Source: Candidatus Moraniibacteriota bacterium
GTDB taxonomy: Bacteria > Patescibacteriota > Minisyncoccia > Moranbacterales > UBA2206
Length of the DNA: 64,000 nt
Direction of reading: 5' to 3'
Assembly (NCBI GenBank): GCA_026396175.1
Contig: JAPLXG010000006.1
Coordinates: 2,895-66,894 of the forward strand
Shown here piece after piece: positions 3,921 to 62,310 of the stretch. The translations under genes were made by a program, and so were the position numbers. The notes under the pieces are model-generated. The model did not search any database. It was not told the origin of the DNA and was given only the letters and a program-made list of their open reading frames with translations. Each line of letters begins with the position of its first letter. The first letter of the stretch is position 1.

Positions 3921-4250
3921 ATGGCAGATGATGATGGAATTGGTGAACTTATTGCCTTGGGACTTATTGTTCTTATCGGAGCTGGCATATATGCGGTTCT
4001 TTGTGCCTTTGGATCACACGAATGTGGTGACGAGGTGACGAAAGAAGAGCTAACTAGGGCCAACTCAGAGGTGTCGGATGACGACAATAATGATGAAAAA
4101 TCTTTGTGTCAAGAAGCGGAAGAAAGAGGCGAGGATGTTTGCTGGAAGTGTCTTACAGTAGAGCCACAACGCTGTGGCGGTTGTGGCGGGTGTATTAAGT
4201 GCAATGGGGATGATGACGGAAGCGGTACTTGCTGTAGCTGGTGTGGATAG
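3921..4250 (+). CDS. small Cys-rich protein with N-terminal TM helix
   Basis: 109 aa; strong RBS GGGAGGTGAAAT before ATG; TM helix ~aa 8-30, acidic linker, 11 Cys in the last 45 aa (CGGCGGCIKC...CCSWCG). Confidence 0.5.
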   Translation: MADDDGIGELIALGLIVLIGAGIYAVLCAFGSHECGDEVTKEELTRANSEVSDDDNNDEKSLCQEAEERGEDVCWKCLTVEPQRCGGCGGCIKCNGDDDGSGTCCSWCG

Positions 4251-4470: not shown

Positions 4471-4495
4471 TTGTATTATTCAGAGCTTTATTTAT

Positions 4496-4660
4496 ATCTC
4501 CTTCGCCCTTCGGGAGAAGGTGGCCGAAGGCCGGATGAGGGCAAGGGTAATATAAAATAGAGATTAATATAAATAAGAATGATTAGTGGAGTATCAACAC
4601 CCTTGCCCTCACCTGTCACGTGCTCGTGACATCCTCTCCCGGAGGGCGAGGAAGGATGCT
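4496..4660. repeat. Family B composite palindromic repeat (CTTCGCCCTTCGGGAGAAGGTGGCC .. CCGGATGAGGGCAAGGG // CCCTTGCCCTCACCTGTCACG .. GACATCCTCTCCCGGAGGGCGAGG)
   Basis: Two half-elements in inverted orientation around an AT-rich spacer. Confidence 0.7.
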
Positions 4661-4665
4661 TTATT

Positions 4666-5511
4666 TTATATCAATTCCACCAACTTTTTCCAATCCTCCA
4701 AACTCAATTCTTGCGCTCGTTGATTTTGGGAAATCTCAATTTGTTTCAACTTTTCTTCAACAACAGCTTTTTCTAATTTCAAACTACTTGAAAGATTATT
4801 AACCAGTGTTTTTCTTTTAGCCGAAAACCCAGCTTTTACAATCCGAAAAAACTTTTTCATTCCTTCTTTGTTTCTTGTTTCTTGTTTCTTGTTTCTTGCT
4901 ATCCTGATAACTGCACTATCCACCTCCGGCACAGGAAAAAAAGCCTTTGCCGGAACAGTGAAAAGCAACTCTGGAGTAGCATAATATTGCACAGACAAAG
5001 CCAAAATACTCATCTTTCCGGCTTTGGCACAAATCCGCTCCGCCACTTCTTTTTGTACCATCAAAATCATTTCTGTCGGTGGATATTTTGTTTCCAAAAA
5101 TAAGCGAATAATTGGTGAAGTGATGTAATAGGGAATATTAGCAACCACTTTGTATTTAGTATCTGGTATCTGGTATTTGGTATTTTGTAAAATCAATTCG
5201 GGCAAATTTATTTCTAAGATATCGCCAAGCACTATTGTGGTGTTACTTTTGGAATTTAAAATTTTATCATTTGGATTTGATTTCAAATTTAAAATTTCAA
5301 ATTTCAAATTGCGAGCTGTCTTTTTCGCCAATTCCTCATCCGTTTCTATGGCAATCACTTTTCCCGCAAGCCTTGCTAGTTCTTTCGTCAGCACTCCTTC
5401 CCCCGGCCCCACCTCAATCACCAAATCATCCGCACTCAAATTAGCAGCTTGGATAATTTTGTCTAAAACGGTTTTATCTCGCAAAAAATTTTGACCTAAT
5501 TTTGTCGGCAT
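4666..5511 (-). CDS. rsmA: 16S rRNA (adenine1518/1519-N6)-dimethyltransferase
   Basis: GQNFL and VIEVGPGEG SAM-binding motifs; carries in-frame inserts from the AAATTTCAAAT repeat and the GGTATTTGGTAT repeat (QNTKYQIPDTKYK). Confidence 0.85.
   Translation of the reverse strand: MPTKLGQNFLRDKTVLDKIIQAANLSADDLVIEVGPGEGVLTKELARLAGKVIAIETDEELAKKTARNLKFEILNLKSNPNDKILNSKSNTTIVLGDILEINLPELILQNTKYQIPDTKYKVVANIPYYITSPIIRLFLETKYPPTEMILMVQKEVAERICAKAGKMSILALSVQYYATPELLFTVPAKAFFPVPEVDSAVIRIARNKKQETRNKEGMKKFFRIVKAGFSAKRKTLVNNLSSSLKLEKAVVEEKLKQIEISQNQRAQELSLEDWKKLVELI
5155..5190. repeat. Family F GGTATTTGGTAT / ATACCAAATACC repeat (also 5551-5585, 40188-40222, 62101-62137)
   Basis: AGTATCTGGTATCTGGTATTTGGTATT and inverted partner flank rsmA; copies lie inside rsmA and nfo and upstream of ORF 40225. 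Confidence 0.65.
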
Positions 5512-5580
5512 ATACTTTGGGTAAGAGGTAGTTAAGATTTTAGTACGCGATACTAAATACTAGATACCAAATACCAAATA

Positions 5581-6522
5581 CTAATTAAGTACTTCTTCCA
5601 CTTTCACGCCAATCACCCCTGCACCAATCGAAGCGATTTTTTGGAAAGCGACTTTGTCGAGATCGATGATGCGGCCTTTGCCTTGGGGGCCGTAGTCGTT
5701 GATTTGAACAATGACCGATTTGCCATTGGCAGTATTGGTTACTCTAGCATAATTTCCTCTGGCAATGGTAGTGCTGGCGGCAAATAGTCCGCCTTTGAAG
5801 GCGTACCAGGTGCCGATGCCCTTTTGGGCATTGCCGGTTTTAACATAGGTGCCCTGAGTGATCACTTCGGTCACTGGATCCTTGGTGATATTTTTTTCCA
5901 GCACAACGCGAGAAATTTCTTTGCCGTCACGATATGTAATTTTATATTTCACCTCGCGGATACCCGTTTCTCCTTCAGTTTGGGTGCTTTTTTCCCGCCA
6001 ACCCATTTTGTTATCCAGCTTGGTGATAGTTTTGTAGGCGATATCTTCCGGGATGACTTTTTCTTCCACATTGATGCGCGTGACAATGATTTGGGTATTA
6101 TTTTCCAAAAAACCGTTTACATCCGGCGTGGTTTTGTCCAAGCGTCCCAGCGTGACATTATTTTCGCCCAAAACTGTCACAATGTTTTTTGCGATAGTGT
6201 AATTTTCAATCTTTTTTCCATCCACTAGAATTTTTATGTTAACTGCTCGACGAATTCGGATATTCTCTCCTGGTAACAGGAGGCTAGCTTTATCCGGTAG
6301 GACTTCGTCGTGTTCAGAAAGGGTGATTTTTTGTTCAGCTAGAAAGTTATCCACAGTCTGCGCACTCGAATTTAGGCTTGAAGTAAGCCCATTATCGGAA
6401 AGGGTGACTAATCTTGGTTGCTCAGAAAAAAGTAATTCTCTTTTTTGCGAATGAAAAAAAGTCCTCCATAGGATGAAGATTATGAGTGTGAAAAATAGTA
6501 ATTTAATGAATTTTTTGGGCAT
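5581..6522 (-). CDS. cell-wall binding protein with DUF348-G5-3D architecture (YabE-like)
   Basis: G5 and C-terminal 3D domain recognisable; sits next to rsmA as yabE-ksgA does in Bacillus. Confidence 0.65.
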   Translation of the reverse strand: MPKKFIKLLFFTLIIFILWRTFFHSQKRELLFSEQPRLVTLSDNGLTSSLNSSAQTVDNFLAEQKITLSEHDEVLPDKASLLLPGENIRIRRAVNIKILVDGKKIENYTIAKNIVTVLGENNVTLGRLDKTTPDVNGFLENNTQIIVTRINVEEKVIPEDIAYKTITKLDNKMGWREKSTQTEGETGIREVKYKITYRDGKEISRVVLEKNITKDPVTEVITQGTYVKTGNAQKGIGTWYAFKGGLFAASTTIARGNYARVTNTANGKSVIVQINDYGPQGKGRIIDLDKVAFQKIASIGAGVIGVKVEEVLN

Positions 6523-6529
6523 CTATATT

Positions 6530-6700
6530 TATATCCCCTTCGCCCTTCGGGAGAAGGTGGCCCGCCGCGGCGGGCCGGATGAGGGCAAGGGCTTTATATT
6601 AAGAAAATACTAAATTAGCAAAGTTTATTCTTAGTTTATGACCCTTGCCCTCACCTGTCACGTGCTCGTGACATCCTCTCCCGGAGGGCGAGGAGGAATC
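6530..6700. repeat. Family B composite palindromic repeat
   Basis: Near-identical arms to the 4496-4660 copy. Confidence 0.7.
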
Positions 6701-8253: not shown

Positions 8254-8739
8254 TTATTTATACCCTCTTCTCCCGAGGGGAGAAGAGGATTTGATTATTA
8301 AAAGAAAAACTCCCAAGCAGATAAATATATCAGCCAAATTGAAAATTGGCCAGACCTTGAAATCAATAAAGTCTATTACGCAACCATAATGTAGTCTATC
8401 AAAAAGATTAGAAAGTGCGCCAGCAAGGATAAGAATCAAAGAATAATTTGAAATTTTAAATTTAAAATTTGAATTCAAATTAAAATTTTTAAATTTGAAA
8501 TTAAATAATTCATTTCTAATTTCAAACTTCAAATTCAAAATTAAAAAACTGACAAAAACAACAATGGCTATAATAAATCCTAGTATTGCCCAATTCGGCA
8601 GGCTTATCCCAAATGCTACGCCCTTGTTGCAAATATAAAATCCGCCAAAAGAGCGGATGATATATTTCGCTAACTGATCAATAAAAATCAGCAAGATTAT
8701 CAGTAGAAATGAGTTTTTATTCGTAGATTCGCATTTCAT
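8254..8739 (-). CDS. lspA: lipoprotein signal peptidase II
   Basis: LspA blocks ([27 protein letters not shown]); start placed at internal ATG ~8739 because the longer ORF overlaps the downstream dksA-like gene; in-frame low-complexity insert [17 protein letters not shown] from the AAATTTGAAAT repeat. Confidence 0.75.
8440..8545. repeat. Family C low-complexity AAATTTGAAAT / TTTCAAATTT repeat tract (inside lspA)
   Basis: Tandem and degenerate GAAATTTTAAATTTAAAATTTGAATTCAAATT units; further tracts at 5270-5310, 46850-46975, 57665-57790, 62370-62525, 63485-63640 and 63985-64000. Confidence 0.65.
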
Positions 8740-8758
8740 TCGTAGTTTCGAATCGGGT

Positions 8759-9106
8759 TTAACATTTAATACAAGTCTTGGCACTCGGATTGGCGCGCAG
8801 CCGTTCGATATCGATTTCTTTTTGGCAGTTTTCACAAAGCCCATAGGTGCCTTTTTCCATCCGTTCCAGCGCGCTGATTATATCTTGCAGCTTTTTTTCC
8901 AAAGTGACTTCCACAGGCAAATTGTCCGTGTACTCTTCGACCTCAGTTGTGTTGTCTTCGCGGTCAGTTCCGACTTCGCCAAAAGTGGTTTCATAGTCCC
9001 CTTTTTCCTTGTCCACGGGTCGTGCAATGCGGGCTAGATTTTCCTCTAGATCAGTCCTTTCTTTTAATAAAAGAGCCTTCAGCTCGTCGAGTACTTGTTT
9101 ATCCAT
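8759..9106 (-). CDS. DksA/TraR-family C4 zinc-finger protein
   Basis: 115 aa; C-terminal CxxC...CxxC (CENCQKE...CIKC). Confidence 0.7.
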
Positions 9107-16104: not shown

Positions 16105-18315
16105 ATGGCAAATATCTTAGAAAATTTAAATCAATCGCAACGCGAGGCGGTGGAAACGACGGAAGGCGCGGTTTTAGTGATTGCTGGCGCCGGATCGGGA
16201 AAAACGCGAGCGTTGACTTTTCGCACTGCCTATTTGATTTGCGAAAAAGGCGTGCGGCCCGGGCAAATTTTGGCGGTAACTTTCACCAATAAGGCGGCCA
16301 AGGAAATGCAAGAGCGGATTGCGCAGCTATTGGCGGACAGTGGTTTCAAAGGAAAGCTACCATTGGTTGGTACATTTCATTCTATTTGTGCTAGAATTCT
16401 CCGCTCAGAGATTGGCAAGTTGGGTTTTGAAAGCAATTTTAACATCTTCGATGCGCAGGATCAGCAGAGTTTGGTGAAAAAAACGATGAAAGAATTGGGC
16501 GTTGATCCGACGCAATTTCGTCCACAAAGTATTCTCGGTGCCATTTCTAAGGCCAAAAATGAACTAATTGATGCAAAAATGTTTCAAGAAAGAGTCGGTG
16601 GCTATTGGGAAGAAATTGTCTCGAAAGTCTACGTCGCCTATCAGGAACGGCTCAAAAAGAATAACGCGCTGGATTTTGATGACATCTTAATGTTACTCGT
16701 TCAAATTTTCCGCACTTTTCCAGAAGTGCTCGAGAAATATCAAAACATCTTTCGCTATATTATGGTGGACGAATATCAAGATACCAATCATGCGCAGTAT
16801 ATGCTCATTAAGATGCTAGCTGATAAGCACAAAAACATTTGCGTCGTCGGGGACGACTGGCAAGGGATTTATTCTTGGCGCGGAGCCAATATCCAAAACA
16901 TTTTGGATTTTGAAAAAGACTATCCAGCCGCGAAGGTTGTGAAATTGGAACAAAATTATCGCTCCACTCAGCAAATCTTGGACGCGGCTTATGGTGTGAT
17001 TTCCAAAAATATCAATCGCAAAGATAAGAAAATATGGACGGAGAATAAAACGGGACATCTCTTGGCTTCCTATGAAGCCGATGATGAGAGCGATGAAGCG
17101 CAGTTTATTGTTTCGGAGGTAATTAGTTTAAGAAATAAGGGTGTAAAACTCAATAACATCGTTGTGCTTTATAGGACCAATGCCCAGTCGCGGATCATTG
17201 AAGAAGCGCTACTTGGCGATTCCATCCCATATCGGATTATTGGTGGATTGAAATTCTACCAAAGAAAAGAAATCAAAGATATTATTGCCTATTTGCGTTT
17301 GATTGAGAATTTTAATGACGAAATTTCTTTGGAGCGGATCATAAACGAACCGAAGAGGGGGATTGGTGATAAGACGGTGGAAAAGTGGGTTATGGCTGCC
17401 AAAGAGGCTAGCTTGAGCCTGATTGATGCCGGCTCTAAAATTTCCAATTTCCAATTTCCAACCTTGCCTACCGGCAGGCAGGTTTCCAATCAAATTCAAA
17501 TTTCAAATGACAAGATTAGTAAATTAAGAGCGGAGAGCATTATAAAGTTTTGCGATTTTATTAAGCGGATGAGTGAGGTGAGAAATAAGCTGACATTGGC
17601 GGATTTTGTTCAGAAAGTTTTTTCCGAAAGTGGCTACGAGCGGCAGTTGCTTGATGGAACAGATGAGGGGCAGATGCGGCAAGAAAATGTGCGGGAACTC
17701 GTCACTGTTGCCAAAAAATACGACGCTTTTAAGGATGGTGAGGGTTTGCGACTGTTCCTGGAAGAAGTGGCGCTTGTGGCGGACACGGACAACATCGATC
17801 AGTCCAGCGAAGCCGTGCATCTAATGACACTGCACAGTGCTAAGGGTTTAGAATTTCAATATGTGTTTATTATCGGTCTAGAAGAAGGCATCTTGCCGCA
17901 TTCGCGCAGTATGCTTAGTGAAACTGAAATGGAAGAAGAGCGGCGGCTGATGTATGTGGGAATCACGCGTGCCAAGCAAAAAGTTTATCTGCTTTTCACC
18001 AAGATGCGCACAATTTTTGGTTCGACCCAAATTAATGCGCCTTCAAGATTTCTTGATGATATTCCCGCGGAGTTGATTGAAAATGCTGAAAACTCAATCA
18101 TAAATGCTTGCGTGGAAAAGTATGCTACCGCCAGAAAAAAAACTATTCTGACGGAAATGAAAACAAGCTACAAAGGCGGAGAAAGAATTAGTCACGAAAA
18201 ATTTGGCGAAGGACTGGTAATTTCTTCGCAAGGCGATATTATTACTGTGGCTTTTAAGAAAGTGGGTCTGAAAAAACTTTCCAGCTCTTTGGCGCCGATT
18301 CGGAAAATAGAATAA
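16105..18315 (+). CDS. pcrA: ATP-dependent DNA helicase PcrA/UvrD
   Basis: Walker A AGAGSGKTR and UvrD helicase motifs; in-frame insertion (..FQFPTLPTGRQVSNQIQISNDKI..) built from the CTACCGGCAGGCAGG palindrome flanked by AAATTTCAAAT-type repeats at ~17440-17525. Confidence 0.9.
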   Translation: MANILENLNQSQREAVETTEGAVLVIAGAGSGKTRALTFRTAYLICEKGVRPGQILAVTFTNKAAKEMQERIAQLLADSGFKGKLPLVGTFHSICARILRSEIGKLGFESNFNIFDAQDQQSLVKKTMKELGVDPTQFRPQSILGAISKAKNELIDAKMFQERVGGYWEEIVSKVYVAYQERLKKNNALDFDDILMLLVQIFRTFPEVLEKYQNIFRYIMVDEYQDTNHAQYMLIKMLADKHKNICVVGDDWQGIYSWRGANIQNILDFEKDYPAAKVVKLEQNYRSTQQILDAAYGVISKNINRKDKKIWTENKTGHLLASYEADDESDEAQFIVSEVISLRNKGVKLNNIVVLYRTNAQSRIIEEALLGDSIPYRIIGGLKFYQRKEIKDIIAYLRLIENFNDEISLERIINEPKRGIGDKTVEKWVMAAKEASLSLIDAGSKISNFQFPTLPTGRQVSNQIQISNDKISKLRAESIIKFCDFIKRMSEVRNKLTLADFVQKVFSESGYERQLLDGTDEGQMRQENVRELVTVAKKYDAFKDGEGLRLFLEEVALVADTDNIDQSSEAVHLMTLHSAKGLEFQYVFIIGLEEGILPHSRSMLSETEMEEERRLMYVGITRAKQKVYLLFTKMRTIFGSTQINAPSRFLDDIPAELIENAENSIINACVEKYATARKKTILTEMKTSYKGGERISHEKFGEGLVISSQGDIITVAFKKVGLKKLSSSLAPIRKIE
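17464..17482. repeat. Family D 20-bp palindrome CCTGCCTGCCGGTAGGCAGG inside pcrA (also at 15944-15963, 29049-29068, 30894-30913, 38871-38892, 62257-62276)
   Basis: Exact or near-exact copies; the in-CDS copies (pcrA, cca, nfo) are all read in the LP(A/T)GRQ frame. Confidence 0.75.
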
Positions 18316-23831: not shown

Positions 23832-23875
23832 AAAAAATGGTGTGGGGCAAGACTGAGCTACACGCCCGATATTAT

Positions 23876-24115
23876 TTATTTCCCCTTCTCCCTCCGGGAG
23901 AAGGTGGCTGAAAGCCGGATGAGGGTTCTTTCAATAGTTGACCATCTACTCATTTATAACAACATTTTCCTTTTTATCAACGTCCCTTCCCTCACCTGTC
24001 ACGAGTACGTGACATCCTCTCCCTAAGGGAGAAGAGGCATTGAAAAAACTGTTCCGTAGCCTCACCTGTCCTTCGGACATCCTCTCCCGAGGGGAGAGGA
24101 GGATATCTCGCGAGA
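23876..24115. repeat. Family B composite palindromic repeat (diverged, with an extra arm)
   Basis: GGGAGAAGGTGGCTGAAAGCCGGATGAGGG ... CCCTCACCTGTCACGAGTACGTGACATCCTCTCCC ... CCTCACCTGTCCTTCGGACATCCTCTCCCGAGGGGAGAGGAGG. Confidence 0.6.
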
Positions 24116-30512: not shown

Positions 30513-30574
30513 GTAATTAAATTTTTGCAGCTGACATCATGGCCGCAAGATAATGATTATGAATGTCTAAATAG

Positions 30575-30735
30575 AAATATCCTCCTCTCCCTTAGGGAGA
30601 GGATGTCCGAAGGACAGGTGAGGGAAAGGGCTTTGTGCTACTGGAGAGCTATATTCTTCGTAGTATGTCCACTCCCTCATCCGGCCTTTGGCCACCTTCT
30701 CCCTAATGGAGAAGGGGAAATAAATTATAAAAAAA
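30575..30735. repeat. Family B composite palindromic repeat
   Basis: CTCTCCCTTAGGGAGAGGATGTCCGAAGGACAGGTGAGGGAAAGGG ... CCCTCATCCGGCCTTTGGCCACCTTCTCCCTAATGGAGAAGGGG. Confidence 0.7.
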
Positions 30736-37461: not shown

Positions 37462-37625
37462 ATATCTCCTCCTCTCCCTTAGGGAGAGGATGTCCGAAGG
37501 ACAGGTGAGGGAAAGGGCTATGAGTTAGCACTAAACTAATTTAAAAATAAGTTTTTTGTAACAGAAAGGCTTCTCCCTCATCCGGCCTTCGGCCACCTTC
37601 TCCCTAATGGAGAAGGGGATTTAAC
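37462..37625. repeat. Family B composite palindromic repeat
   Basis: Near-identical to the 30575-30735 copy. Confidence 0.7.
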
Positions 37626-40004: not shown

Positions 40005-40224
40005 TATAAACTGAGCTGTTGCTTTTTTGGAGTTTCGCATTCGTCCGAAAAATTATTCCTAAAAGCGCGGTTTCCGTTTATTGGATAGTAGGCTGCTGGT
40101 TTACCGGACGACTAGGATGCTAAGAAAAAATAACGTGCGGAACAATTTTTCGGGCGAATGCGAAAGTCTTGGTTTATTCAAAAATAAATACTATATACCA
40201 AATACAAAATACCAGATACTAATT

Positions 40225-40887
40225 ATGGCTTCACAAATCGCGCATATTGTTTATGCCAAAAAATATTTTGATCAAATCGAAAACGGAAAAACCAATGATG
40301 ATTTTTTGGATGAAGAAAAAATAAAACATAATCGCAAGATTAATAAAGACGAGTTTATGTTGGGTACGACATTTCCTGATATCAGAAGAATTGAGCCAAG
40401 CATAAAAAGAAAAGACACGCATTTGCAATTTGAACCATTAAATTTGGATTTTTCTGGATTAACTTCTTTCGAGGCTGGTTGGAAATTTCATCTCTATTGT
40501 GATATGCGGCGCGATGAGATTCTTAATGCGCATGGCTTTTTCAAATTAGCGAAAACTGCCGAATTATTTGGGCATCCTGCCAAGTTTATAGAAGACGAAT
40601 TATTATATGACCACTATAATAATTGGGAGAAAGTGGCTAATTATTTCCGCAACCCACCACTGGTAAATTTGGATATTAAAGCAGATCGGCCGACTTTTGT
40701 TTTGTGGTATGCAATTCTGGCTAATTATATGGAAAAAAAACCAGATGAAAAGACGATACGAATTTTTCTTTCTAAAAAATCAAGTCTTTCGCAAAAAACA
40801 GATGAGATAATTGAAATCATTTCGGAGCTTAAGAAAAATAAAAAAGTTGTGGATATTTTAGAGCATGTTTTGGATGAGATTGTGTGA
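40225..40887 (+). CDS. hypothetical protein
   Basis: Start at ATG 40225 (MASQIAH); the upstream part of the listed ORF is the GGTATTTGGTAT repeat. Confidence 0.45.
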   Translation: MASQIAHIVYAKKYFDQIENGKTNDDFLDEEKIKHNRKINKDEFMLGTTFPDIRRIEPSIKRKDTHLQFEPLNLDFSGLTSFEAGWKFHLYCDMRRDEILNAHGFFKLAKTAELFGHPAKFIEDELLYDHYNNWEKVANYFRNPPLVNLDIKADRPTFVLWYAILANYMEKKPDEKTIRIFLSKKSSLSQKTDEIIEIISELKKNKKVVDILEHVLDEIV

Positions 40888-48434: not shown

Positions 48435-48482
48435 CGAATCATGTAGCATATAACATGTAACATGAAGCAAAAAAATAAATCT

Positions 48483-50507: not shown

Positions 50508-50603
50508 CACAGAAATGGTGTGGGGCAAATATTCAACATATAATAAATAGAAGTTTACTTAGTTTTTTGTTACATGTTTTATGCTATATGTTGTATGACC
50601 CAG

Positions 50604-50680: not shown

Positions 50681-51003
50681 GCCGAGTTAGCTCAGTGGTA
50701 GAGCAGAGGACTGGTTTTCGGTCCGTTCCAGAGTAATTTGGAAATGAAAATTGGATGAATTCGAGGAAGCCTAAAACTAATTTTATTAGAAATGGTAATC
50801 TCGAGCTAAGCTTCAAAGGGCTTAAGGTTTTGAAGAAAGTGTAGAGACTAGCAAGTGAGTCCCAACAATAATCTTGCGCTAGCGTCCAATATCCTATTTT
50901 GCTAGTTAGTAAAAGGATAATGAAATAGTCCGATCCTTGGGGAAACTCAAGAAAAATAACAAGGAAAATCCTTGTGTCCCCGGTTCAATCCCGGGACTCG
51001 GCA
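50681..51003 (+). tRNA. tRNA-Phe (anticodon GAA) interrupted by a ~251-nt group I intron between U33 and G34
   Basis: 5' exon 50681-50712 (GCCGAGT acceptor .. GAGGA-CU), 3' exon 50964-51003 (GAAAA-UCCUU .. ACUCGGC-A); the joined sequence matches the canonical tRNA-Phe pattern. Confidence 0.75.
50713..50963 (+). ncRNA. group I intron (tRNA anticodon-loop type)
   Basis: P1: exon GGACU pairs intron GGUCC (50720-50724) with U.G at the splice site; R-like GUAGAGACUAGCAAG (~50841-50855) and S-like AAAUAGUCCGAUC (~50923-50935) give P7 GACUA/UAGUC; terminal G at 50963. Confidence 0.7.
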
Positions 51004-51071
51004 CAAATTGCATAAAATTGAAAGTCCGTTCGCGGGCTTGCCCGCCGTAGTCACGCTTCGGCGGGACGCAG

Positions 51072-52270: not shown

Positions 52271-53359
52271 ATGGACATATCAAAAGCAATAAATCTCATG
52301 AGAATACCGATGGCATTTTGGGTGGTTTGGTTTCACTCATATATTTCCAATGTTCCAGAGCCGATGATGTATACTTTTAGTTTTTTAGTTTTTAATATTC
52401 GATCACTGCCAGCGATTTTTTTTAATGATGCAGCCTTTTTAGGAGTAATTGCCGTGAATATCTTCATTATCATTTCCGGCTTTGGACTAACCTATTCGCA
52501 TTACAGAAAAAAACCAATCTCAAATTATCGATACTTTAAAAAAAGATTTCAAAGAATCATGCCAATCTATTGGATCGCTTTGACTTTCGCAATCCTTTGG
52601 AACATTTATGTGTTTAATTATATTCCATCGTGGTTTTCTATTTTCACGCACATTCTGGGAATTCATGTATTTTTCCCCGCGACGCTTTACGACATCAATG
52701 GTTCTTTGTGGTTCGTGGGGTTGCTTATTCCGTTCTACATAACATTTCCAATTCTGATAAAGATATATGAATCAAAATATGGTTTTTGGAAGTTAATTAT
52801 CCTCGGCGTTCTGGCCAAGATTTTAATCGGACTATTTATTTATCCCAATTTCAGCAATCCTCCTAAGCTTTGGCTTGAATTTTTGGTGGATTTTGCTCTT
52901 GGTATGCATCTGGCGAAAAGATATGTTTTGGATGAAATAAAAACGATTCCCAATGCAATCGCGCTACCGGCAATTTTTCTGTCCATCTGCGCCGTTCTGG
53001 TTAGTCGCAATTCCTACATCGATCTTCATTCACTGCAAGATCCTTACTTGCACAGTGTATATGCCGTGATTATTCTTTTTGGAATGATCGGCCTATTTAA
53101 TCTTTTCCCAAGATTTTCGCAAAAAATTTCCGCTTCGAAAATTCATAAGCTTCTTCTCGCTACTGTTTTGGAAATATATCTTTTTCATTCTCCCCTGGTT
53201 GATTATGTGAAGTATGGTCAAGATATATTGCATGGTGATCCTGTCAGAACATTTTTTTTCGCACTGGGAATTTTCCTGGTCTTGGGATTTGGTATAGCGC
53301 TAATCCAGACGTGCTTCGCGTATGTTTATGGACAGATTACCAAAAGAAAAATAGCTTAG
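52271..53359 (+). CDS. acyltransferase family 3 (AT3) membrane protein
   Basis: 362 aa polytopic; AT3-like. Confidence 0.65.
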   Translation: MDISKAINLMRIPMAFWVVWFHSYISNVPEPMMYTFSFLVFNIRSLPAIFFNDAAFLGVIAVNIFIIISGFGLTYSHYRKKPISNYRYFKKRFQRIMPIYWIALTFAILWNIYVFNYIPSWFSIFTHILGIHVFFPATLYDINGSLWFVGLLIPFYITFPILIKIYESKYGFWKLIILGVLAKILIGLFIYPNFSNPPKLWLEFLVDFALGMHLAKRYVLDEIKTIPNAIALPAIFLSICAVLVSRNSYIDLHSLQDPYLHSVYAVIILFGMIGLFNLFPRFSQKISASKIHKLLLATVLEIYLFHSPLVDYVKYGQDILHGDPVRTFFFALGIFLVLGFGIALIQTCFAYVYGQITKRKIA

Positions 53360-61461: not shown

Positions 61462-62310
61462 TTATTTATTATCGCGAAAACTTTTTAATAGCTCAATATC
61501 TTTTTCTACCGCGTCATGCTCAGTTTCCAAAATCATATCAATATTATTCTTTTCGGCAAATGCGACAATATTTTGAAATGCAACTTTGCCAATTTTTCCA
61601 TCACCAATATGTTCATGGCGATCTCGCTTGGAATCAAAATCAGTCAAACTGTCGTTGGCGTGGATTAGTTTAATATTTTTTAGTCCCAATTCTTGATCAA
61701 TTCTTGTGATAGTTTTTTTGAAATCTCGCCAGTCATAGCCGGAAGCAAAAGAGTGCTGAGTGTCGAGGCAAATTCCGGCGATAGCGCTGTTGCCTACTCC
61801 ATCGATAATTGTTTTCAAGTCAAGAAGTGAGCTTCCGATGATTTCTCCGGCGCCGGCGCTGTTTTCCAAAAGTAGTTTAGTTTTTCCAGTATAATTTTCC
61901 AAAGTTTTTTGGAGCATCTCGATTACTTTTTGGATTGACTCGTCATGGGTCATGCCTTTGGCGGATCCAAGGTGGGTCATCACATATTTCGCGCCAATGA
62001 GACTTCCTCGTTCCAATTCGTCGCGGACGACACTGACTGAACCGTAGCGGATGCGATTTTCCAGGGAAGCGAAATTAATGTAGTAAGGCGTATGGATGTA
62101 GGTATCTAGTATTTGGTATCTAGTATTTAGTATTTTAAATTCACTGACAATTTCCTTTGTCAGTTCCGGTGCCTTTCCACCACGCGGTGAGCGAGTGAAA
62201 ATCTGCATTATTTCGCAACCTAAAACGCTTGCACGCTCAGGTGCATTTTGGATTCCGTGCCTACCGGCAGGCAAGCCGCCAGCGATTGAGATGTGAGCAC
62301 CGATGTTCAT
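61462..62310 (-). CDS. nfo: endonuclease IV (AP endonuclease family 2)
   Basis: Canonical Nfo; two in-frame repeat inserts (GGLPAGRHGIQ from the CCGGCAGGCA palindrome; NTRYQILDTY from the GGTATTTGGTAT repeat). Confidence 0.85.
   Translation of the reverse strand: MNIGAHISIAGGLPAGRHGIQNAPERASVLGCEIMQIFTRSPRGGKAPELTKEIVSEFKILNTRYQILDTYIHTPYYINFASLENRIRYGSVSVVRDELERGSLIGAKYVMTHLGSAKGMTHDESIQKVIEMLQKTLENYTGKTKLLLENSAGAGEIIGSSLLDLKTIIDGVGNSAIAGICLDTQHSFASGYDWRDFKKTITRIDQELGLKNIKLIHANDSLTDFDSKRDRHEHIGDGKIGKVAFQNIVAFAEKNNIDMILETEHDAVEKDIELLKSFRDNK

Follow-up and report, generated by a model that had tools for sequence, protein, structure and literature searches.

Genes and heptamer arrays in the window

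The window, i.e. the whole 64-kb stretch of DNA analysed here, harbors the genes of two housekeeping enzymes, RsmA and Nfo, in and around which short direct repeats of 7-nt units are found. The features concerned are:

4666-5511, minus strand: rsmA, 16S rRNA dimethyladenosine transferase, 281 aa (Pfam RrnaAD, 3e-54)
4867-4899, minus strand: site C in rsmA, (GAAACAA)x4.4 on the sense strand (TRF, 100% match)
5149-5189, minus strand: site B in rsmA, (R)GTATYT array of about 5.4 units (TRF, strict census)
5242-5315, minus strand: site A insert in rsmA, N68-N90, NLKFEILNLKSNPNDKILNSKSN, with the core (AAATTTG)n at 5278-5315
5512-5580, minus strand: 69-nt spacer between the stop codon of a yabE-like gene and the rsmA ATG (DNA alignment, gene maps)
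5550-5584, plus strand: intergenic array upstream of rsmA, 5 units, AAATACY-type on the plus strand
40186-40222, plus strand: untranslated array before the gene starting at 40225, about 5 units, YARATAC
61462-62310, minus strand: nfo, deoxyribonuclease IV, 282 aa (Pfam AP_endonuc_2, 5.8e-37; homolog names)
62098-62136, minus strand: heptamer stretch in nfo, about 5 units
62254-62274, minus strand: GC-rich 20-bp palindrome GTGCCTACCGGCAGGCAAG, a 7-aa LPAGRH(G) insert in Nfo (ortholog alignment)

Four repeat arrays had been noticed in a first-pass annotation of the letters, and pattern matches as well as TRF place them within a few bases of where they had been reported. With at most one mismatch, GGTATYTGGTAT matches 13 times in the window compared to 0.26 expected, and none of 100 shuffled sequences reached 13; the matches reside at 5158-5183 (plus), 5557-5582 (minus), 40195-40220 (minus) and 62101-62126 (plus), with one stray at 53284. 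The corresponding period-7 calls of TRF are 5152-5189 (5.4 copies), 5550-5584 (5.0 copies), 40186-40222 and 62101-62135. At all sites the 7-nt units are arranged head-to-tail in 4.4-5.4 copies, with TRF and a strict lag-7 census in agreement, and the tracts, at about 5 units, are both short and imperfect, showing a unit match of 81-87% in TRF.

These arrays belong to a wider excess of period 7. In the strict census of the window all 10 arrays have period 7, with periods 6 and 8-12 unrepresented, TRF reported 15 period-7 and 4 period-14 arrays versus about 2 and about 0.55 in shuffled sequence, and exact period-7 arrays number 6 versus 0.03 expected. Within the range of 6-12, seven is the sole over-represented period in the window and in related Candidatus Moranbacteria contigs alike (relatives contain 6 arrays on 76 kb and 15 on 172 kb), genome-wide enrichment being judged on 64 kb of the source genome together with the contigs of relatives. 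A window-wide lag autocorrelation revealed the codon period only and no global period-7 signal, which limits this signal to discrete arrays. Long ORFs are overlapped by 7 of the 10 strict arrays, at least five of which are translated according to ortholog alignment, and translated arrays occur in unrelated conserved genes, namely those of RsmA, Nfo, LspA, the ORF 16105-18315 and UvrC of another Moranbacteria genome (L049). Three of the 10 strict arrays lie in rsmA, with a fourth array directly upstream of this gene.

The window-wide excess had escaped the first-pass annotation. Heptamer families of the lineage comprise AAATACY, AAATTTG, AATTTTC, GAAACAA, AAATTCC and others. The idea that the GGTATYT unit is specific to this lineage was rejected, as three or more such units are present at at least 119 loci over many phyla (about 17 by chance in a uniform-composition estimate), including longer and perfect arrays in other phyla. 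No Rfam family overlaps any of the arrays. With a strict threshold, scanning the proteins at lag 7 gave almost nothing because the arrays cover fewer than two peptide periods; a motif-based peptide scan of the 120 best homologs was used instead. Literature searches brought up no publication dealing with heptamer arrays of CPR bacteria or Patescibacteria.

Three translated arrays in RsmA

RsmA is 100% identical to an NCBI protein from a Candidatus Moranbacteria MAG and matches KsgA of Bacillus subtilis (6ifs) at 1.2e-42, while exact-protein look-ups with RsmA and the yabE-like protein returned no independent assemblies. The first-pass annotation had attributed two repeat-derived inserts to rsmA and had proposed ortholog alignment as well as structural mapping for their verification. 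Both inserts, sites A and B, are borne out by the alignment, but a third array at 4867-4899 had been overlooked; the repeat peptides given for RsmA and Nfo, LPAGRH included, are correct translations. In the predicted structure, all three RsmA arrays form coil regions of reduced pLDDT, i.e. low-confidence loops.

The site A insert of about 23-24 aa, which includes the peptide NLKFEILNLKSNP (RsmA aa 68-80), is present in the relatives L001 and L002 and absent in more distant orthologs, exceeding B. subtilis KsgA by 15 aa at this position. It is an older insert, common to relatives. Its units read AATTTGA in the window, L001 and L002, and AATTTTC in all four units of L193, whose RsmA shares 81% aa identity and whose array is of equal length. 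This switch of the unit at fixed length constitutes concerted evolution. Moreover, an in-frame TGA, which a perfect unit would create, is avoided in one unit by TTTTAAAT.

On the sense strand of rsmA, site B is of the AAATACC type and encodes Q109-Y120 (QNTKYQIPDTKY), with the peptide QNTKYQIPDTKYK spanning RsmA aa 109-121. Compared to L001, L002 and L193, all of which read CAAAATAATTTCACAAA(A/T)TA(C/T)AAAG, the site has a net gain of 15 nt, 13 nt being replaced by 28 nt between the flanks AAAATA and CAAAG. Among the 120 best RsmA homologs, no other carries the site B peptide, whose residues 111-119 are predicted as coil with pLDDT below 50 at 113-116. Site B and the 69-nt upstream spacer are gains particular to this genome.

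The third array, site C, encodes A205-K215 (ARNKKQETRNK) in the interdomain linker, with residues 207-214 as coil. Its position is occupied by an ETRNKKQ-type peptide in 14 of 120 homologs and by peptides of GC-rich palindromes, e.g. PAYAEASAGE, in other homologs; site C is a loop that has turned heptamer-patterned.

The nfo gene

The array in nfo encodes K59-Y71 (KILNTRYQILDTY), and NTRYQILDTYIH corresponds to Nfo aa 62-73. The region is of equal length in every ortholog, and a KYQI(P/L)NT-type peptide is found at this position in 18 of the 120 best homologs. The DNA array is kept in L006 and L008, while L007 features AAATTTA-type units of the same length, and changes between species are mostly synonymous. 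Furthermore, the native segment [KR]-Y-x-[IL]-x-[ND]-T-Y is encoded almost exactly by (AAATACY)3. The nfo array is a native segment with a heptamer pattern and not an insert. Hence, the two inserts that the first-pass annotation had counted in nfo reduce to one: LPAGRH (Nfo aa 13-18) belongs to a true 7-aa insert, and the heptamer stretch adds no length. Independent contigs, retrieved via exact protein identity and for nfo only, include L004, the one aligned, in which nfo and the repeat-rich 215-nt upstream spacer are identical to the window; in the nfo region of such assemblies, picked by exact protein match, no array length polymorphism was seen.

The GC-rich sequence CCTRCCGGYAGG occurs 6 times in the window compared to 0.13 expected. 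Dispersed small repeats of the window, i.e. the 20-bp palindrome and an element of about 180 nt, are translated in-frame in relatives.

Arrays upstream of start codons

The array at 40186-40222 stops 2 nt short of the true ATG at 40225, the start of a gene of 220 aa with no assigned function. Homologs set in at this ATG, i.e. residue 49 of the long ORF, and thus the array is untranslated, in keeping with the earlier view of the copy at 40188-40222 as a probable 5' UTR. Arrays of 4, 5 or 6-7 units are located at the equivalent position in the orthologous loci L129, L132, L160, L138, L139 and L146 and are absent in the close relatives L128, L130, L131 and L133 (64-77% aa identity). Orthologs down to 55-59% aa identity retain unvarying ATAC cores spaced by 7 nt: none of 16 core columns varies versus 8 of 17 other columns (Fisher p=0.003, a test on four kindred sequences that overstates their independence). 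Other orthologs of the 40225 gene carry TGnTATAAT 9-18 nt ahead of the ATG, which puts the array at a core-promoter or short-leader position. No Shine-Dalgarno sequence is visible ahead of rsmA, nfo or the 40225 gene, and scans for sigma-70-like promoters or terminators found none at either upstream array (rsmA, 40225).

In relatives, the upstream stop codon and the rsmA ATG are 4-10 nt apart, so that the spacer in the window is longer by about 65 nt compared to L001 and L002, and the repeat copy reported just upstream of rsmA indeed lies within this insertion. This array (5550-5584), which is not present in L001 and L002, appears in the rsmA transcript as GGUAUYU and overlaps the TAG stop codon of the yabE-like gene (5581-5583). 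With the nfo array it shares 30 of 32 nt, including an exact run of 25 nt by eye. Copying of the nfo array into the rsmA leader was considered and set aside, the 25-nt run being suggestive but not significant by a rough estimate.

Origin and turnover of the arrays

The arrays are probably slippage-driven heptanucleotide microsatellites, with selection for an open reading frame as a filter. The period-7 excess, gains relative to related genomes, concerted unit replacement, avoidance of in-frame stop codons and the location in loops are direct observations. We infer slippage as the generating process, and the neutrality of the arrays likewise.

In such a scheme, GGTATYT/AAATACY would be one among several AT-rich heptamer families made and turned over by the Moranbacteria lineage, with replication slippage or misaligned repair inside an array as the mechanism. 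Selection would then settle the persistence of an array: intergenic arrays would be free to vary, and a genic array would be retained only if it changes the net length by a multiple of three, contains no unit with an in-frame stop, specifies a tolerable polar peptide on the sense strand, and falls either into a surface loop or into a segment with constraints that the repeat satisfies by chance. RsmA would offer three tolerant loops and Nfo one native segment that fits (AAATACY)3, and the arrays would be without dedicated function in their host proteins.

Variation of unit number or unit type among related genomes is indeed found at the 40225 loci, site A and nfo. Stop codons are avoided by C in place of T where TAA or TAG would arise (TAC-CAA in nfo, TAC-CAG in rsmA) and by TTTTA where TTTGA would result in TGA. 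Moreover, wherever a coding AAATACY array was seen, five in all (in rsmA, in nfo of three genomes taken as one locus, and twice in UvrC of L049), the sense strand is the one that encodes the polar KYQIPNT. On the other side, whole units add multiples of 7 and the gain at site B is 15 nt, which calls for at least one extra event. Local copying, as opposed to fully independent births, is hinted at by the presence within 64 kb of four copies of the same family, including two separated by 366 nt, and by the two arrays 424 nt apart in UvrC of L049. The lack of array length polymorphism between independent assemblies of the nfo region, picked by exact protein match, likewise speaks against slippage. 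The conserved ATAC cores ahead of the 40225 orthologs would also fit a bound cis-element, and slippage offers no reason for the period being 7.

There is a small but appreciable chance that the intergenic copies are functional heptads, whose ATAC/GUAU cores at 7-nt spacing near start codons are read by a DNA- or RNA-binding protein that would control transcription or translation of genes devoid of a Shine-Dalgarno sequence, the intragenic copies being spill-over; a ribosomal S1- or Csp-like factor or an omega-type ribbon-helix-helix repressor would be candidate binders. The distance of 2 nt from the ATG, the same placement in at least six orthologous loci down to 55% aa identity and in a core-promoter or short-leader slot, the fixed ATAC cores amid varying columns and the lack of a visible Shine-Dalgarno sequence ahead of all three genes point in this direction, as does the similar placement described for the TAACTGA repeats of Beggiatoaceae (PMC4679880). 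However, the orientations are opposite (the 40225 leader reads AAAUACC, that of rsmA GGUAUUU), four relatives lack the former array and L001 and L002 the latter, many differing heptamer units exist, and the promoter scans were negative. In addition, unit shuffling inside an array could equally produce invariant cores, and the Fisher test on four related sequences overstates their independence. A more far-reaching version appears improbable, namely that (YARATAC)n provides the heptads of a putative dedicated binding protein and thus a start-codon-proximal regulatory code in Shine-Dalgarno-poor CPR, that an RNA duplex between the leader and codons 109-120 additionally controls rsmA, and that translated copies are overflow.

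Quite improbable is the view that a small (AAATACY)5 cassette of about 35 nt, mobile or copy-pasted, gave rise to the arrays by spreading into AT-rich targets through a transposition-like process or templated repair. It would account for the similar size of the four copies (about 5 units), for the near-identity of the rsmA-upstream and nfo arrays (30/32 nt) and for the replacement of 13 by 28 nt at site B, which is no simple duplication of local sequence, and the window contains other dispersed small repeats that are in-frame in relatives (the 20-bp palindrome and the ~180-nt element). On the contrary, similarity between copies stops at the array edges (28-38 nt; BLAST of the flanks found no larger element), terminal inverted repeats and shared flanks are missing, and DNA alignment reveals no clear target-site duplication at the rsmA-upstream insertion. 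Given about 6 unit variants and many registers, a shared run of 25 nt is, by rough estimate, not improbable; the nfo copy entails no length change in any ortholog, and concerted unit changes at fixed length suit turnover within the array.

A joint action of the two arrays at rsmA, either as a DNA inversion switch of the 5' region or through pairing of the leader RNA with codons 109-120, by which a duplex around the start codon would modulate translation or stability of rsmA, is very improbable. The inverted partner of the rsmA repeat is real: the arms at 5149-5183 and 5550-5584 comprise 35 nt, are 86% complementary and lie 366 nt apart, and both were gained in this genome specifically. MFE and centroid folds of the 471-nt transcript segment pair both arrays (z-score -3.5; none of 100 shuffles folds as well), but such in-silico pairing is expected of any two complementary AU-rich arrays, and translating ribosomes would open a duplex within the coding region. 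The longest perfect match of the arms is 13 nt, which is too short for efficient homologous exchange by RecA. Near-perfect repeats and a nearby recombinase, as expected of an invertible segment, are not found; the flanking genes are rsmA and the yabE-like gene. Inversion would deprive rsmA of its start codon and the first ~107 codons and thereby destroy the gene. The pair is found in no second genome, and relatives are collinear across the region in the DNA alignment. The suggestion that the repeats bracket an invertible segment finds no support. Each arm resembles the nfo array at least as much as it resembles the other arm, and the upstream array is closer to nfo (94%) than to site B (86-88%). 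If the arrays arose by slippage, two separate arrays produced the inverted layout at the start of rsmA as a by-product, and this layout is no switch.

Finally, contingency loci, in which frameshifts due to changing numbers of heptamers would turn rsmA and nfo on or off, have precedents in coding heptanucleotide tracts that can cause phase variation (neuO of E. coli K1, HMW of Haemophilus) but are hardly credible here: the tracts, of about 5 units each and with an 81-87% match, are short and imperfect, that in nfo has persisted across species with mostly synonymous changes, nfo and its 215-nt upstream spacer are identical in L004 (picked by exact protein match), and the hosts are housekeeping enzymes without surface or restriction functions.

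Significance and relation to known heptamer repeats

The known heptamer excess extends, in one CPR lineage at least, into the coding sequence of universal enzymes, where heptamer arrays create 7-residue peptide repeats in loops, with RsmA as a hot spot. For annotation and alignment of CPR proteins, this means that odd peptides such as NFQFSIF, NLKFEIL and KYQIPNT and lineage-specific "inserts" are repeat-derived and not domains. Moreover, the arrays provide a clean natural system of tandem-repeat turnover under reading-frame constraint.

Contiguous 7-bp heptads with a conserved core, arranged in either orientation over promoters, form the omega-repressor operators of plasmid pSM19035. The arrays described here differ from these in core sequence and in that most copies are genic, while a cognate protein is only putative.

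The TAACTGA direct repeats of marine Beggiatoaceae, Cyanobacteria and Bacteroidetes (MacGregor 2015, PMC4679880) consist of 2-6 heptamers located a few nt upstream of start codons without Shine-Dalgarno sequence, some of which, like 5550-5584, extend over the preceding gene's stop codon, and of which occasional copies are translated in the stop-free orientation. The start-proximal heptamers at 40186-40222 resemble this type without being members of it: the unit sequence is another one, and no unit or orientation dominates upstream of genes here. In addition, TAACTGA copies within ORFs are peripheral and mostly reside in hypothetical proteins, whereas the present arrays occupy internal loops of RsmA, Nfo, LspA and UvrC. 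In being repeat DNA that is in-frame in unrelated conserved housekeeping genes at tolerant, fold-compatible sites, the arrays are comparable to Rickettsia palindromic elements (RPEs) and other intragenic MITEs (reviewed in PMC10969869). RPEs, however, are palindromic, about 100-150 bp long and specify a conserved peptide, while the arrays are non-palindromic direct tandem repeats of about 35 nt, with neither terminal inverted repeats nor, at the rsmA-upstream insertion, a clear target-site duplication; closer RPE analogues in the window are the 20-bp palindrome and the ~180-nt element.

An excess of heptameric SSRs in bacteria is outlined in PMC4692102 (citing Mrazek 2007 and Mazel 1990) for the cyanobacterial STRR of Calothrix and Nostoc and for GGGAATC/GGGGAYT in Xanthomonas and Nostoc. 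As far as these are described there, the arrays share with them the head-to-tail 7-nt units, the prominence of period 7 over neighbouring periods, the occurrence at many loci, the variation of length and sequence between related genomes, the absence of a known function and the proposed origin by slippage. In contrast to those arrays, which that account presents as predominantly intergenic, the units here are AT-rich and fall into several families, with short and degenerate arrays, the host belongs to the CPR, and placement is not mainly intergenic, most arrays being in-frame in conserved housekeeping enzymes. Taken together, the arrays are a local case of the known bacterial heptamer excess and call for no new mechanism.

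Heptamer arrays in the window

Matches to GGTATYTGGTAT with at most one mismatch number 13 in the window, against 0.26 expected from dinucleotide shuffles, and 12 of the 13 fall into four clusters, each delimited by TRF as a period-7 array with about five units:

5158-5183, + strand, cluster within rsmA
5557-5582, - strand, cluster upstream of rsmA
40195-40220, - strand, cluster upstream of the gene starting at 40225
62101-62126, + strand, cluster within nfo

The GGTATYT-type repeats are present as described in the first-pass annotation, whose translations of the rsmA and nfo copies are also right. Many further period-7 arrays with AT-rich units, overlooked in that annotation, were detected by TRF, among them TTGTTTC, ATTTCAA, AATTTCC, TAATTTC and TTGAAAA. 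Exact period-7 repeats occur 6 times versus 0.03 expected, TRF reports 15 period-7 arrays where Markov shuffling leaves about 2, and 4 period-14 arrays where it leaves 0.55; a uniform lag test yields 10 period-7 arrays and nothing at period 6 or at periods 8-12. The signal consists of discrete arrays only, without global periodicity; three of the ten lie within rsmA and a fourth directly upstream of it. The pattern is the same in related Moranbacteria contigs (6 arrays in 76 kb, 15 in 172 kb). The analysis covers 64 kb of the genome, and gene context was taken from ORFs and homology, without a gene caller.

Arrays translated in rsmA

The RsmA protein is 100% identical to that of a Candidatus Moranbacteria MAG. 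Its three variable sites were defined by an alignment of 27 orthologs and by DNA alignments with the nearest relatives, L001, L002 and L193 (79-81% amino acid identity by BLASTP):

4666-5511, - strand, rsmA ORF (Pfam RrnaAD, 3e-54)
5242-5315, site A, aa 68-90, core (AAATTTG)n
5149-5189, site B, aa 109-120, GGTATYT array
4867-4899, site C, aa 205-215, perfect (GAAACAA)x4.4

The proposal that rsmA carries repeat-derived inserts is upheld at sites A and B. Site A, which is common to close relatives, exceeds its counterpart in more distant orthologs by about 24 aa and that in B. subtilis KsgA by 15 aa, and an NFQFSIF-type peptide, derived from (AATTTTC)n, occupies it in 20 of the 120 best homologs. 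Its units read AATTTTC in four of four cases in L193 and AATTTGA in the window, at identical length, a concerted change that marks turnover inside a tandem array. At site B, relatives carry CAAAATAATTTCACAAA(A/T)TA(C/T)AAAG, which the window exceeds by 15 nt; the array occurs in no other of the 120 best homologs, and in other orthologs of the 27-ortholog alignment the loop holds repeat-derived inserts unrelated to that of the window, such as ISPLPSPVSSTRHPLPKGEE in the relative P0007. A peptide matching site C was found in 14 of the 120 best homologs. Structural mapping onto an AlphaFold model (mean pLDDT 84.6) places all three sites in coil of reduced confidence; pLDDT averaged by block is 72 and 61 across residues 71-90, 61 across 111-120 and 72 across 211-220.

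The junction upstream of rsmA

Between the stop of the upstream yabE-like gene and the rsmA ATG lie 69 nt, versus 4-10 nt in L001/L002, and 35 of the 69 are a heptamer array that overlaps the TAG stop of the yabE-like gene. In L193, the relative encoding P0004, the same junction holds a DUF6922/AbiEii toxin-antitoxin pair (521-1480); the junction is thus a general hot spot for insertion. A scan upstream of rsmA for sigma-70-like promoters and terminators found neither. This upstream array resembles the nfo array (30/32 nt) more than site B.

It had further been suggested that the inverted arms around the rsmA 5' region (5149-5183 and 5550-5584) might mediate inversion, which finds no support: the arms, 35 nt each and 366 nt apart, are 86% complementary with a longest exact run of 13 nt, inversion would sever rsmA from its start codon and first ~107 codons, and relatives are collinear across the region in DNA alignment. 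Transcript folding in silico joins the two arrays in the minimum-free-energy and the centroid structure alike (z = -3.5), as expected for any complementary pair; only this genome has the two together.

Between a UbiA-family gene and rsmA, a 109-aa Cys/Asp-rich ORF (3921-4250) ends in CGGCGGCIKCNGDDDGSGTCCSWCG; a Pfam search of it returned no match, and the interval measures only ~25 nt in L001.

The nfo array

61462-62310, - strand, nfo (deoxyribonuclease IV) ORF

The count of two repeat-derived inserts in nfo does not hold. The LPAGRH peptide is borne out by ortholog alignment as a true 7-aa insert, common to the homologous protein P0122, and RLPAGRQ-like inserts adjoin its position in other Nfo orthologs; the heptamer stretch was ruled out as an insert, all 19 aligned orthologs being of equal length there. 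A KYQI(P/L)NT-type peptide occupies this position in 18 of 120 homologs. At the DNA level the array is kept in L006 and L008 with mostly synonymous changes, and in L007 the position is filled by AAATTTA-type units without change of length. Orthologs without repeats have [KR]-Y-x-[IL]-x-[ND]-T-Y as their native motif, which the (AAATACY)3 product KYQILNTY matches, so that the repeat satisfies Nfo's own sequence constraints.

An assembly artefact was excluded for the arrays, since L004, an independent Logan assembly and the one assembly aligned, agrees base for base with the window over nfo and the 215-nt repeat-rich spacer upstream of it, and the Nfo protein is identical in two more Logan contigs (L003 and L005).

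An untranslated array upstream of the 40225 gene

Residue 49 of the long ORF, the ATG at 40225, is where its homologs start, and the array at 40186-40222 is therefore untranslated, ending 2 nt 5' of the start codon, in agreement with the earlier assignment of the 40188-40222 copy to a probable 5' UTR. Among 40 loci examined of 65 orthologous loci retrieved, NNNATAC arrays occur at the equivalent position in L129, L132 and L160 (79-84% amino acid identity) and in L138, L139 and L146 (55-59%); L128, L130, L131 and L133 are without array. When the window is compared with the three array-bearing relatives closest to it, 0 of 16 ATAC core columns vary versus 8 of 17 other columns, which would fit a bound cis-element as well as reshuffling of units inside the array, the test being indicative only as the sequences are related. 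The regions 5' of rsmA, nfo and the 40225 gene, the three that were inspected, show nothing resembling a Shine-Dalgarno sequence, and several 40225 orthologs (L140, L144, L151, L162, L163) carry TGnTATAAT, an extended -10 box, 9-18 nt 5' of the ATG, a proximity that points to transcripts with no leader, or a very short one, in the lineage.

The spacer 5' of the 40225 gene also contains a 27-nt inverted repeat (92.6%; 40033-40059 / 40139-40165), without Rfam match, whose 3' arm and surroundings are nearly identical in L129, and which may form a structured leader or serve the preceding gene as terminator.

Further repeats and features

A GC-rich element of ~180 nt, internally inverted, occurs five times, complete or in part, at 81-90% identity:

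4480-4660, directly 3' of rsmA
6523-6697, directly 5' of the yabE-like gene
23872-24104
30569-30725
37467-37624

The rsmA and yabE-like unit is thereby flanked by two copies, and the element's translation PLPSPVTCS*HPLPEGEEG matches the P0007 site-B insert. The palindrome CCTRCCGGYAGG, usually ~20 bp when extended, occurs 6 times versus 0.13 expected (15946, 17467, 29053, 30898, 38874 and 62260). It reads LP(A/T)GR(H/Q) in Nfo and in ORF 16105-18315, is flanked on both sides by heptamer arrays at 17433-17510, and its peptide recurs in relatives' LspA and RsmA and upstream of the 40225 ortholog in L138.

The signal peptidase II gene lspA (8254-8844 in the window, compared with the L001/L002 orthologs) contains heptamer-derived peptides (NLKFEI...), and in relatives the equivalent loop holds variable inserts, including LPAGRQG and CLPVGKA. 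In UvrC of Moraniibacteriota UBA12142 (L049 4119-5606), 424 nt separate two in-frame AAATACC arrays, KIQNTKYQIPYTK and EIQDTKYQIPNTR, of which the latter grades from a GGAACAT/GGAGCAT heptamer run (MEHGAWNMEH); the gene further contains an NLNFQFPISN stretch and the insert LDSRLRGNDK, which derives from a GC-rich palindrome. Heptamer-type arrays at 48440-48464 (CATGTAA x3.6) and 50562-50597 (14-nt unit x2.6) fill short spacers between neighbouring tRNA genes. At 50682-51006, a group I intron (Rfam RF00028, 50703-950, 77.7 bits) appears to interrupt a tRNA gene missed by ARAGORN; read by eye, the flanks GCCGAGTTAGCTCAGTGGTAGAGCAGAGGACT and AAAATCCTTGTGTCCCCGGTTCAATCCCGGGACTCGGCA appear to be the halves of a tRNA-Phe(GAA) whose anticodon loop holds the intron.

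Selection on the arrays and comparison with known systems

As read directly from the sequence, variant bases avert the in-frame stops that perfect units would create (TAC-CAA in nfo, TAC-CAG at rsmA site B, ATT-TTA for ATT-TGA at site A), and in the coding AAATACY arrays seen (rsmA, nfo and two in L049 UvrC) the sense strand always encodes polar KYQIPNT, never GIWYLVF. The arrays of the window are best read as heptanucleotide microsatellites of a lineage that produces many; selection would have removed every array that broke a reading frame, leaving the present ones as survivors. Particular to this case is the number of arrays translated within conserved enzymes.

In the literature searched, no description of heptamer arrays of this kind in CPR bacteria was found; (GGTATYT) arrays of at least three units occur at no fewer than 119 loci across many phyla, with long and perfect examples among them. 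TAACTGA heptamer repeats of Beggiatoaceae, Cyanobacteria and Bacteroidetes lie mostly a few nt 5' of starts without Shine-Dalgarno sequence, sometimes extend over the stop codon of the preceding gene, and are translated on occasion (PMC4679880). Rickettsia palindromic elements are small repeats that invade housekeeping genes in frame (PMC10969869). The cyanobacterial STRR heptamers (PMC4692102) are part of the known excess of heptamer repeats in bacteria.
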